This document shows positions 701 to 5,879 of a DNA stretch of 5,879 bases, one piece after another; positions within the stretch are counted from its first letter, which is position 1; each line of letters opens with the position of its first letter. The stretch spans positions 1 to 5,879 of the forward strand of contig NW_021829754.1 of assembly GCF_006345805.1 (NCBI RefSeq), in the 5' to 3' direction. The notes below the pieces were generated by a model. The model saw only the letters and a program-made list of their open reading frames with translations. It was not told where the DNA came from and made no database searches. The stretch comes from Octopus sinensis (taxonomy: Eukaryota). Made by a program: the position numbers and the translations under genes.

Positions 701-888
701 CGGAAAGTTTACGAAAATAAACAAAAGACGAAGGCAGGTGGAGTACAAACAAACAAATGTATTAGTATAGCGCTCAGGAATAGAAAAAGTCTTTTACGTT
801 TCGAGCCTACGCTCTTCGTCAGAAAGATACACAGAAAAAAACAAGGAGAGAAACAAAGAGAGAAAAAAATGCGTGTAGGAGCTAACGA

Positions 889-893
<5 letters not shown>
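699..893 (-). repeat. Direct repeat / pseudo-LTR copy A
   Basis: Runs aacggaaagtttacgaaaat ... gcgtgtaggagctaacgatctat and is near-identical to 920-1108. It carries a private 12-bp duplication (aaacaaggagag/aaacaaagagag, 839-862). Confidence 0.95.
790..827 (-). ncRNA. Minimal type I hammerhead ribozyme, intact catalytic core
   Basis: Minus strand reads UCUUU-CUGACGA-A-GAGC-GUAG-GCUC-GAAA-CG-UA-AAAGA. Stem I is UCUUU/AAAGA (5 bp), the core is CUGANGA, stem II is GAGC/GCUC with a tetraloop, then GAAA, a palindromic ACGU in place of stem III, and a GUA cleavage triplet (predicted cut between 795 and 794). Confidence 0.85.
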
Positions 894-919
<26 letters not shown>

Positions 920-921
<2 letters not shown>

Positions 922-1108
922 CGGGAAGGTTTACGAAAATCAACAAAAGAGGAAGGCAGGTGGAGTACAAACAAACAAATGTATTAGTATGGCGCTCAGG
1001 AATAGAAATAGAAAAAGTCTTTTACGTTTCGAGCCTACGCTTTTCGGCAGAAAGATACACAGAAAGAAACAAGGAGAGAAAAAATGCGTGTAGGAGCTAA
1101 CGGTCTAT
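920..1108 (-). repeat. Direct repeat / pseudo-LTR copy B
   Basis: Runs aacgggaaggtttacgaaaat ... gcgtgtaggagctaacggtctat and is separated from copy A by (TA)n at ~891-920. It carries a private 6-bp duplication (aataga x2, 1001-1012). Confidence 0.95.
1018..1055 (-). ncRNA. Minimal type I hammerhead ribozyme, degenerate copy
   Basis: Minus strand reads UCUUU-CUGCCGA-A-AAGC-GUAG-GCUC-GAAA-CG-UA-AAAGA. It is identical to 790-827 except for core A6->C and a G->A change breaking the first stem II pair. Stem I arms, ACGU and the GUA site are intact. Confidence 0.75.
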
Positions 1109-2845: not shown

Positions 2846-3123
2846 TTCTTTACATTCTTCCATTGTATTATGGTCAGTTATGGTCAAGACTGGTCAGTAA
2901 TAATACATTTTCTTCGTTATTGTTATTAGTTGGTGTGAATAGCAGAGATGAGGTAATATTTTTCCCCGGCAGACTGTCGGACGGAGGTCAGGGAGTCGCA
3001 GCGGCGTTAGCGGTGGTGAAGGCGGTGACGTGGGCCCTGGCGGCGGCTACAACGGGGATGGTGGTCACAATAGAGCAGCGTCAATGGTGCTGTTGGTATT
3101 ACTGTACGACAAAAGGCTAGGCG

Positions 3124-3237
3124 ATATGTATGTGTGTATATATGTGTATATATATATATATATGTATGTACTGTATGTATCATCCTAATGGTCATCATAT
3201 TTGGTCGAGCATGCTGTGACATATATACATACATACA

Positions 3238-3268
<31 letters not shown>

Positions 3269-3354
3269 TACATATACACATATTTTTTATACCATATACA
3301 TATAATATATACATATACAATATATACACATATACATATATAAATATATATATA

Positions 3355-3398
<44 letters not shown>

Positions 3399-3526
3399 TA
3401 TACATATACATATATAATATATATATATCCCTATACACATATTATACATATACATATATATATATATATATACATATATATAGGCATTCATATATATATA
3501 TAGTATCTATCTATCTATTACATGTG

Positions 3527-3577
<51 letters not shown>

Positions 3578-3612
3578 CATAAAACATATGAGACACTAGT
3601 CTATCTCATATA

Positions 3613-3672
<60 letters not shown>
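3124..3672. repeat. Interrupted (TA)n/(TACA)n microsatellite field
   Basis: Read directly, with short unique interruptions. Confidence 0.9.
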
Positions 3673-3676
<4 letters not shown>

Positions 3677-3777
3677 CACGTTACGTATGATGGTCTGGGA
3701 GCGGAGCTGGGAAAGTTCGGCAGGCAGCCATATTTGATTGTGATATCTAAACAGTAACATCAAACGCGAAAACCTAA

Positions 3778-3905
3778 TTTCTTTCATTTTCTTTTTTCGT
3801 TTTTTCCCTTCCTTCCTTCCTTCCTTCCTTTGTTCCTTCCATCCTTCATCCTTCCTCCTCCTCCTCCTCTTCGTCTTCCTTCTCTTCTCATTTTTCTTCT
3901 CGTTT
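3778..3905. repeat. Polypyrimidine tract with (TTCC)n, (CCT)n and (CTT)n
   Basis: ccttccttccttccttccttcc, cctcctcctcctcct; almost purine-free on the + strand. Confidence 0.9.
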
Positions 3906-3920
3906 ATCAACTCCCATATC

Positions 3921-3998
3921 GTTACTGTTGTTGTTGTTGTTGTTGCATTTGCGATCGTGGTTGCGTGTGTGGCGGTGCTGTTGGTGGTGGCGCTGTTG
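3921..3998. repeat. (GTT)n and degenerate (GGT/GGC)n trinucleotide repeats
   Basis: tgttgttgttgttgttgttg followed by ggcggtgctgttggtggtggcgctgttg. Confidence 0.8.
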
Positions 3999-4486
3999 TA
4001 TGTATATATATATATATTATATATATATGTATATATTATGTATATATGTATGTTATATATATATATAATGTATATATCTATGTATATATATTTATATATG
4101 TATATATATATGTATATATATATATGTATATATATATATGTTATAATATATGTTATAATATATATTGGATATATATATAGATGTATATATATATAATATA
4201 TGTATATTATATATATGTATATATATATATATATGTAATATATATATATAGTATGTATATATATATGTATAATATATATGTATGTATATATATATATGTT
4301 GTATATGTATTATAATAGTATATTATATGTATATGTATATATATAATATGTTATATAATGTATTATATATATATATGTATGTATATATATATTATATATA
4401 TATATGTATATATATATATCTGTATGTATATATATATATGTATGTATATATAATATGTATATATATTATGTATATATATAGTATAT
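3999..4486. repeat. Interrupted (TA)n/(TATG)n microsatellite field
   Basis: Read directly. Confidence 0.95.
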
Positions 4487-4506
4487 CGTGTTTGTTCCGG
4501 CTGATT

Positions 4507-4635
4507 TTGTTGTTGTTGTTGTTGTGTGTGTGTGTCTGTGCGTCGTTCTCTTTGTTGTGTTCTTATTATAAATAACAATGTTGTGCTTGTTCTCGTTATC
4601 GTCGTGGTCGGCGTTCTTCTTGTTCTTATTAATAT
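4507..4635. repeat. (TTG)n, (TG)n and degenerate GTT/GTC/CTT trinucleotide low-complexity sequence
   Basis: Read directly. Confidence 0.7.
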
Positions 4636-4675
4636 TGTATACGAGCTTCCTAAATGCAGATATAGTCTCAAACAT

Positions 4676-5180
4676 TATATATATATATGTGTATATATAT
4701 ATATATGTGTGTGTGTATATATATATATGTGTGTATATATATATGTATGCGTATATATATGTATATATATATGTATGTAGGTATATATATATATGTGTGT
4801 ATGTATATATATATATGTGTATCTATATATATATGTGTACGTATATATATGAGTGTATATATATATGTGTATATATATATGTGTGTATATAAGCATGTAT
4901 CAACATGTAGACATACGTAAATGTATGTGTCTGTGTGTATACATATGTGTGTGTTTTTATATATATATATATATATATATATACCATTATGCATGTGTAG
5001 TCGTGTGTGTATATATGTATATGTATGCACATGGATGTTCATATCCATATATATATATATATATATAGATATTATATATATACGTGTGTGTGTGTATGTA
5101 TAACGATGTATAAGTTTGTGCAAATACATATGCTCGTGTGTGTGTGTGTGTGTATGTGTGTGTCTTTCTACCTGAGTATG

Positions 5181-5226
<46 letters not shown>
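4676..5226. repeat. Compound (TA)n/(TG)n microsatellite field ending in pure (TG)n
   Basis: Read directly; pure (TG)n at ~5188-5226. Confidence 0.95.
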
Positions 5227-5229
<3 letters not shown>

Positions 5230-5332
5230 GAGAGAGTAATTATCGAAAGTGTCCATAGTAAAAACGACGATAACATTGAAAAACTTCCTCCCGTTTTTTG
5301 CTTTGTATTTTCGCTTATTCTTCGCCGCTGCC

Positions 5333-5433
5333 ACGATGACGATGACGGCAACTAGCGATGACGACGACGACAGCTAACGATGACGACGACGACGATCATA
5401 ACGACAATTATGATGATGACGATGATAATGATG
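5333..5433. repeat. Degenerate (GAC/GAT)n trinucleotide repeat
   Basis: gatgacgatgacg...gacgacgacgac...gatgatgacgatgataatgatg. Confidence 0.85.
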
Positions 5434-5498
5434 TGAAGAATATGATCTGAACTTTTTTCACTTTTCGCAGTAGCTAAACAAACCGTCACACATATATG

Positions 5499-5587
5499 TA
5501 TCTATCTATCTTCTATCTATCTAGCTAGCTATCTCTATATATCTATCTATCCCTATCTGCCTCTCTGTAGCACTGTGTGTCTGTCTG

Positions 5588-5645
<58 letters not shown>

Positions 5646-5737
5646 CGTCTGCTTGTCTGTCTATCTATCTAGCTAGCTAGCTAGATATGTATGTATGTAT
5701 GTATGTATGTATCTATCCATCTGTCTATCTATCTATC

Positions 5738-5783
<46 letters not shown>

Positions 5784-5827
5784 CTACTATCTATCTATCT
5801 ATCTATCTCTGTATCTATCTATCTATC
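5499..5827. repeat. (CTAT)n [GATA-type] tetranucleotide array with (CTGT)n, (CTAG)n and (GTAT)n variant blocks
   Basis: Read directly. Confidence 0.95.
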
Positions 5828-5879
5828 AACATATCTGTCTCTCAGTGAATCACTTTATCTATCGACCCACTTCCCTCTC

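Follow-up and report, generated by a model that had tools for sequence, protein, structure and literature searches.

Minimal hammerhead ribozymes (min-HHRs) of Penelope-like elements carry a set of hallmarks, namely a nucleotide separating position 9 from 10.1, a G10.1-C11.1 pair, a palindrome at 15.2-16.2 and a short helix I (PMC4209133). For the schistosome examples given in that report, helix II is 7–8 bp long, and dimers of intact min-HHRs are described as giving only low cleavage in vitro, mostly at non-physiological Mg2+ (PMC4209133). Craig et al. (2021, PMC8557442) describe a preference of Penelope-like elements for (TA)n targets and their occurrence in partial tandems. In the in vitro insertion experiments described by Frangieh et al. 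(2024, PMC11167929), hammerhead catalytic mutants leave insertion of a Penelope-like element unimpaired, and no reads are reported to end at the cut site. Perreault et al. (2011, PMC3088659) describe a natural core variant with C at position 6 whose activity is low but can still be detected.

Here, we analyse a stretch of DNA from Octopus sinensis, hereafter the window, which is an entire 5,879-nt contig of the 2.7-Gb assembly. The earlier note on this DNA had reported two motifs in the same orientation, sharing stem I arms and ACGU palindromes, with predicted cuts 228 nt apart, and all of these features are seen in the minus-strand read. In the account that we favour with reasonable confidence, the motifs lie in two separate copies of one retroposon, one full-length and the other 5′-truncated, which were likely inserted successively into (TA)n. 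Their core would then be a likely degenerate relic of Penelope-like min-HHRs and not a working double ribozyme.

Two copies of a dispersed retroposon

The sequence of motif D fits the canonical minimal type-I hammerhead, with an ACGU palindrome replacing helix III. The full consensus of CUGANGA, GAAA and U16.1 H17, with A at position 6, is found in motif D (822–816, 802–799 and 796–795), while motif U has C6. Since there is a palindrome and no helix III hairpin, pairing would be possible only with a second copy. Motif U is motif D shifted by exactly 228 nt, with identical stem I arms, and the two differ at 2 positions over 48 nt, 6 and 10.1. The substitution at 10.1 breaks the G10.1-C11.1 pair, which is formed by G814 and C803 in motif D. 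Both motifs have the additional A after A9 and an open stem I of 5 bp with nothing further paired. The 228-nt spacing simply equals the length of the repeat unit plus the (TA)15 tract.

Table 1 Positions in the window of the retroposon copies and of the hammerhead-like motifs within them.
Feature	Position	Strand	Remarks
Copy A, full-length (~480 nt) non-coding retroposon	890–1372	−	Head contiguous with unit in 19/19 other loci
Copy A, CA-rich head	1372–1114	−	
Copy A, 3′ unit	1113–921	−	
Copy A, (TA)15 tail	920–891	−	
(TA)15 microsatellite, forming the copy A tail and probably targeted by copy B	891–920	.	In other loci, 5′-truncated copies also abut (TA)n
Copy B, 5′-truncated copy of the same family	666–893	−	Begins inside ...ATAGATCG..., within the (TA)n tail of copy A
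Copy B, own (TA)17 tail	699–666	−	
Motif U, hammerhead-like	1018–1055	−	Minus-strand read and printed 48-nt segments; predicted cut 1023/1022
Motif U, C at position 6	1047	−	
Motif U, additional A	1043	−	
Motif U, A at position 10.1	1042	−	
Motif U, ACGU palindrome	1027–1024	−	
Motif D, hammerhead-like	790–827	−	Minus-strand read; descriptor match; among 96 genomic CUGA copies
Motif D, stem I arms	827–823 and 794–790	−	UCUUU and AAAGA
Motif D, core C3 U4 G5 A6 C7 G8 A9	822–816	−	A6 at 819
Motif D, additional A	815	−	Between A9 and G10.1
Motif D, stem II GAGC/GCUC	814–811 pairing with 806–803	−	4 bp, loop GUAG
Motif D, G12 A13 A14	802–800	−	
Motif D, A15.1 C15.2 G16.2 U16.1	799–796	−	Palindrome ACGU; helix III loop absent
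Motif D, A17	795	−	Places the predicted cut at 795/794

The hammerhead-like strand is the sense strand of the element, which belongs to a family of at least 8,892 core copies in the 2.7-Gb genome. A 25-nt core gives 8,133 exact matches in the genome compared with 0 for its reversed control, and the copies are dispersed over many contigs in both orientations. They end in a common 3′ sequence, ...CCGTTA(TA)n, and many are 5′-truncated, in which case they border on (TA)n or a different microsatellite. A retroposon made by target-primed reverse transcription is recognised by its fixed 3′ end, by 5′ truncation of variable extent and by dispersal, and with the truncations abutting (TA)n, the pattern is therefore that of target-primed reverse transcription into (TA)n. 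A Penelope-like (or other) reverse transcriptase would have mobilised the family in this way. When loci are picked by the head alone, it runs straight into the unit in all 19, so the head belongs to the element, whose full length is 1372–890. In 16 of these 19 loci, the element starts sharply at 1372/1373.

GC content over the units is 31–38%. The open reading frames listed for the window are microsatellite-derived frames only, with no reverse transcriptase among them. ARAGORN finds no tRNA-like part, and an Rfam scan of 1090–1400 finds no tRNA or SINE head. A literature search with the core sequence as a text string returned nothing relevant.

Copies A and B share 90% identity. Copy A is 96% identical to a copy at another locus (L023) and 94.6% identical over 459 nt to a further one (L122), and copy B is 95% identical to a third (L013). 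The indels that separate A from B, of 13 nt and 6 nt, are each shared with other members of the subfamily. Because each copy is nearer to copies elsewhere than to its neighbour, a doubly intact tandem ancestor at this locus is unlikely. The earlier note had proposed just such an ancestral dimer, and the proposal is made improbable by the comparison of 90% mutual identity with 95–96% identity to copies elsewhere, the pairing of a full-length with a 5′-truncated copy, and a family core that has U at position 6. On the simplest reading, copies A and B represent two insertions into one microsatellite and not a duplicated or rolling-circle dimer.

Same-strand partners within 150–800 nt occur at 4 of 30 loci in a sample of cores that was not selected (2 of these loci overlap), at 1 of 30 in a CUGA sample and at 4 of 30 in a window-like sample. 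Tandem pairs are a minority, and the copies do not form the arrays of sister monomers by which retrozymes are defined. Only two close CUGA-CUGA pairs exist genome-wide, spaced 620 and 312 nt.

Other arrangements of the core were seen along the way. Two copies of a diverged subfamily of the core (L058 and L059; G000:C1:14476424 and 14477086) lie head-to-tail, 662 nt apart, with near-identical units. Further pairs in the 25-nt core listing are spaced 746, 798 and about 1,540–1,590 nt, so longer-unit tandem forms of the superfamily exist. Around 786–817 (minus strand), word depth in public runs is highest over the core (792–820), and many contigs diverge just beyond 817 and 786. A core of ~30 nt is common to families with differing flanks, and it is therefore the most widely shared module of the superfamily.

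The rest of the window is also rich in repeats. Parts of a second, unrelated dispersed repeat (family 2) are present three times, at 2–384, 399–555 and 1565–1735. Of 29 other loci, 19 have parts of family 2 within 1.5 kb of their hammerhead-like unit, with varying positions and orientations, and the repeat is either extremely abundant or prone to sharing insertion sites. A 177-nt tandem repeat at 2176–2502 (1.8 copies, 83% identity) is unrelated to the hammerhead-like unit. More than half of 3100–5830 is microsatellite, including (AT)n of 450–490 nt, (TATC)84, (GT)45 and TA/TG mixtures. Rfam matches to miRNA families (mir-297, mir-466, mir-1277 and others) are artefacts of the microsatellite tracts in 3100–5830 and were set aside.

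The base at position 6 across the family

The usual core box of the family is CUGUNGA. Of the copies that otherwise match a 28-mer exactly, 96 (1.1%) read CUGA and 8,796 carry a base other than A at position 6; among the first 100 listed of these 8,796, the base is T in 98 and C in 2. CUGA is found in none of 32 rows in the first 30 core matches on contig 1, a sample that was unselected on the box. Full-length copies picked by the head read CUGU in 19 of 19 cases and CUGA in none. At 819, the U6 base accounts for 99% of word depth across four public runs, whose contigs are of uncertain RNA or DNA nature. Given 8,796 non-A copies against 96 with A, and samples in which CUGA does not occur, the ‘intact’ core of motif D is a 1-in-100 variant.

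The rare A6 copies look like products of neutral change. By hand count, position 7 is A in 39, U in 29, C in 22 and G in 6 of the 96, corresponding to ~1% of each N7 subfamily. On a poorly resolved tree of 33 copies, A6 does not cluster, requiring 9 changes compared with 9.9 when shuffled. Tandem partners are not enriched around A6 copies (1/30 versus 4/30). The spread of A6 over all N7 subfamilies matches what scattered neutral T-to-A changes would be expected to produce in copies that are ~90% alike, and the CUGA box of motif D would be one such change. In a first genome search, 20 of 33 copies had CUGA, a high share that is probably a product of word-based candidate choice with an A6 query and that we do not take for a subfamily.

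The census also bears on motif U. The earlier note had described the upstream copy as altered and the downstream copy as intact; C6 and the broken 10.1 pair are indeed present in motif U, and motif D is canonical. The direction that it gave to the change, from A6 to C, is the part that has to be revised, as a transition from U6 is a likelier source for the C6 of motif U than a change from A6. The core and its flanking box are common to subfamilies with diverged flanks. This hints at constraint on the master copies, which the description of the core as a relic leaves unexplained.

More generally, a ribozyme that looks like a textbook example can be a 1-in-100 variant of a repeat whose standard form lacks an essential core base. 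As an ‘intact’ core can be a rare variant, single-locus readings of hammerheads in repeats need a family census.

Probable ribozyme descent, predicted cleavage and rival readings

We searched with a min-HHR descriptor that called for the box and then, after one base that may be absent, a stem II with a closing G-C pair and no fewer than 4 bp, GAAA, pairing of 15.2 with 16.2, U, H and again no fewer than 4 bp in stem I. This descriptor finds motif D and has 0 matches in 60 Mb of Markov-random sequence; a version that accepts any non-A base at position 6 likewise has 0 matches in 60 Mb. The motif is therefore not an accident of random sequence, and it is present twice because it is carried by a repeat. 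By a rough estimate, fewer than one such motif per genome would be expected by chance. All four min-HHR hallmarks, which are independent of one another and were unplanned, occur in motif D.

Rfam hammerhead models give no match at E ≤ 10, either over the whole window or over 640–1210 alone; models with a helix III may penalise min-HHRs. The only Rfam matches in the window, in 640–1210 and in 1090–1400 are microsatellite-driven miRNA look-alikes, which were discarded. Across 58 copies, no pair in stems I and II is changed on both sides, and 94.7% of cells are paired, compared with 94.8% after shuffling; the family is young, and this null result therefore says little either way. Among full-length copies, conservation of the hammerhead segment does not exceed that of the remaining element (0.965 versus 0.971). 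On balance, the core is likely to have descended from a true min-HHR.

Penelope-like elements are abundant in this genome, and apparently intact ones are present, as indicated by long open frames ending in GIY-YIG. There are at least 5,029 first-look GIY-YIG candidates, of which 147 of 150 scored match at E ≤ 0.001, and the domains are often C-terminal in long open frames of up to 883 aa. A search for a Penelope-like parent found a copy of the unit in 4 of 30 sampled GIY-YIG loci, with inconsistent position and orientation. Around the same 30 loci, a simple descriptor detected no hammerhead-like motif at distances of up to 1.5 kb.

These results bear on whether the likeness to a hammerhead could be coincidental. 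The element would then be a SINE-like module, for example a hairpin for a partner reverse transcriptase, that was never a ribozyme and in which a rare T-to-A change mimics a hammerhead. U6 in ~99% of copies and in all sampled subfamilies would be expected under such a scheme, and the lack of an Rfam match, of covariation and of a Penelope-like parent among the 30 sampled GIY-YIG loci is consistent with it. However, coincidence would have to supply every other core position together with the four independent hallmarks, in a motif that the descriptor does not encounter in 60 Mb of random sequence, non-A position 6 included, and that we estimate to arise less than once per genome by chance. The (TA)n targeting and partial tandems are, in addition, traits of Penelope-like elements in the description of Craig et al. 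(PMC8557442). We therefore regard coincidence as unlikely and prefer descent from a min-HHR.

A dimer of the two motifs would behave as the earlier note had reckoned: the D core would serve the GUA at 1023/1022, and the altered U core would serve the one at 795/794. Pairing in trans is possible, since the stem I arms and ACGU are identical in both copies. The predicted energies are less favourable, with −12.3 kcal/mol for the U-D double-hammerhead fold versus −21.6 kcal/mol for the best dimer fold, and −15.9 versus −26.0 kcal/mol for two D segments. The D monomer is predicted to favour a fold in which ACG of the box pairs with CGU. As a natural C6 variant is described as retaining activity (PMC3088659), the U core is weakened but not provably dead. 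None of the public runs on record as RNA contains the stretch. A read-through transcript would at best undergo weak cleavage, which, if there is any, would be expected at 1023/1022 by the D core in a dimer.

A stronger version of this idea holds that the locus is a decayed retrozyme-like double hammerhead, in which the D core still cuts read-through RNA at 1023/1022 and an ancestral dimer released a unit RNA of ~228 nt. The fit of motif D to the descriptor, the identical arms and palindromes, the low but measurable in vitro cleavage described for dimeric min-HHRs (PMC4209133) and the residual activity of the natural C6 variant (PMC3088659) all speak for it. What makes it very improbable is the history of the units, which are not sisters (90% alike versus 95–96% to copies elsewhere), are full-length in one case and 5′-truncated in the other, and come from a family with a U6 core in which just two close A6-A6 pairs exist genome-wide. 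The gap between −12.3 and −21.6 kcal/mol points the same way, as do the missing loop-loop contacts and long arrays of canonical retrozymes (PMC7229834). What remains of the retrozyme-like double hammerhead of the earlier note is the architecture, which matches that of the minimal type-I hammerheads known to depend on dimers in Penelope-like elements and animal retrozymes; a tandem of sister units is not supported.

The U6 core might itself be functional. Subfamilies whose flanks have diverged still keep box and core, with variation only at N7, and we accordingly leave a small chance for this. In its narrow form, a non-canonical or attenuated hammerhead has been kept by selection on master copies. 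The CUGUNGA box and 25-nt core shared by subfamilies with diverged flanks would fit this form, as would the occurrence of all four bases among subfamilies at position 7, the only one that the hammerhead box leaves free, and rare active core variants are known (PMC3088659). Yet the same source describes the core as nearly invariant in nature and most core mutations as drastically reducing activity (PMC3088659); the variation at N7 is partly CpG decay, and the copies decay neutrally (0.965 versus 0.971). We consider this narrow form extremely unlikely. A wider formulation fares little better and is still quite improbable: selection would have kept the U6 core as a hammerhead that is non-canonical or deliberately attenuated, or its ribozyme fold would have been put to new use as a module recognised by reverse transcriptase, and the A6 copies, among them the one with motif D, would be switched-on variants.

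The favoured account of a degenerate min-HHR relic, carried in two separate insertions, sits well with what is described for insertion. Penelope-like insertion that proceeds without catalysis (PMC11167929) is in keeping with the spread of a family whose core has U6. The octopus family thus adds a large natural example to the evidence, as presented in PMC11167929 and PMC8557442, that hammerhead catalysis is dispensable for Penelope-type spread. Its ~8,800 U6 copies and 96 A6 copies form a ready natural comparison for such dispensability.

Comparison with known systems

For metazoan Penelope-like elements, Cervera and de la Pena (2014, PMC4209133) describe min-HHRs within pseudo-LTRs, with which the octopus motifs share most of their architecture. 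Both are type-I and have no helix III or loop 3, and in both 15.2-16.2 is palindromic and helix III can form only between two copies (PMC4209133). The unpaired nucleotide between A9 and G10.1, the G10.1-C11.1 pair and a helix I of 4–5 bp are likewise shared, as are a huge dispersed copy number, motifs that are mostly single and a low GC content (PMC4209133). Unlike the min-HHRs of that description, the octopus family has U6 and not A6 as its standard, and a helix II of 4 bp and not 7–8 (PMC4209133). A further difference is that the sample of 30 GIY-YIG loci yielded no Penelope-like open reading frame or pLTR with the octopus core.

Animal non-LTR retrozymes, as described in PMC7229834 and bioRxiv 10.64898/2026.07.22.740005, also consist of a short non-coding unit (150–450 nt) with a type-I hammerhead-like motif. 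They resemble the octopus element in low GC content (31–38% in the octopus units), in co-existing with Penelope-like elements and in occasional head-to-tail copies (PMC7229834; bioRxiv 10.64898/2026.07.22.740005). The retrozyme motifs differ in being canonical hammerheads in which loop 1 contacts loop 2 and helix III forms a hairpin (Cervera and de la Pena 2020, PMC7229834; bioRxiv 10.64898/2026.07.22.740005). Retrozymes are described in arrays from dimers to large multimers and as circular RNAs (PMC7229834; bioRxiv 10.64898/2026.07.22.740005), whereas the octopus copies are mostly solitary or 5′-truncated and the two units in the window are not sisters.

The third point of comparison is the (TA)n-targeting derivatives of Penelope-like elements in the Neptune and Naiad clades (PMC8557442). 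The octopus element resembles these, as they are described, in its bias for (TA)n, partial tandems, 5′ truncation and spread without a canonical hammerhead. It departs from the tail copies described for Neptune and Naiad (PMC8557442) in lacking a coding part and in ending sharply on the 5′ side at ~480 nt. The closest known systems are the min-HHRs of Penelope-like elements together with their short non-autonomous or truncated derivatives, from which the octopus family is set apart by one unusual trait, its family-wide U6.
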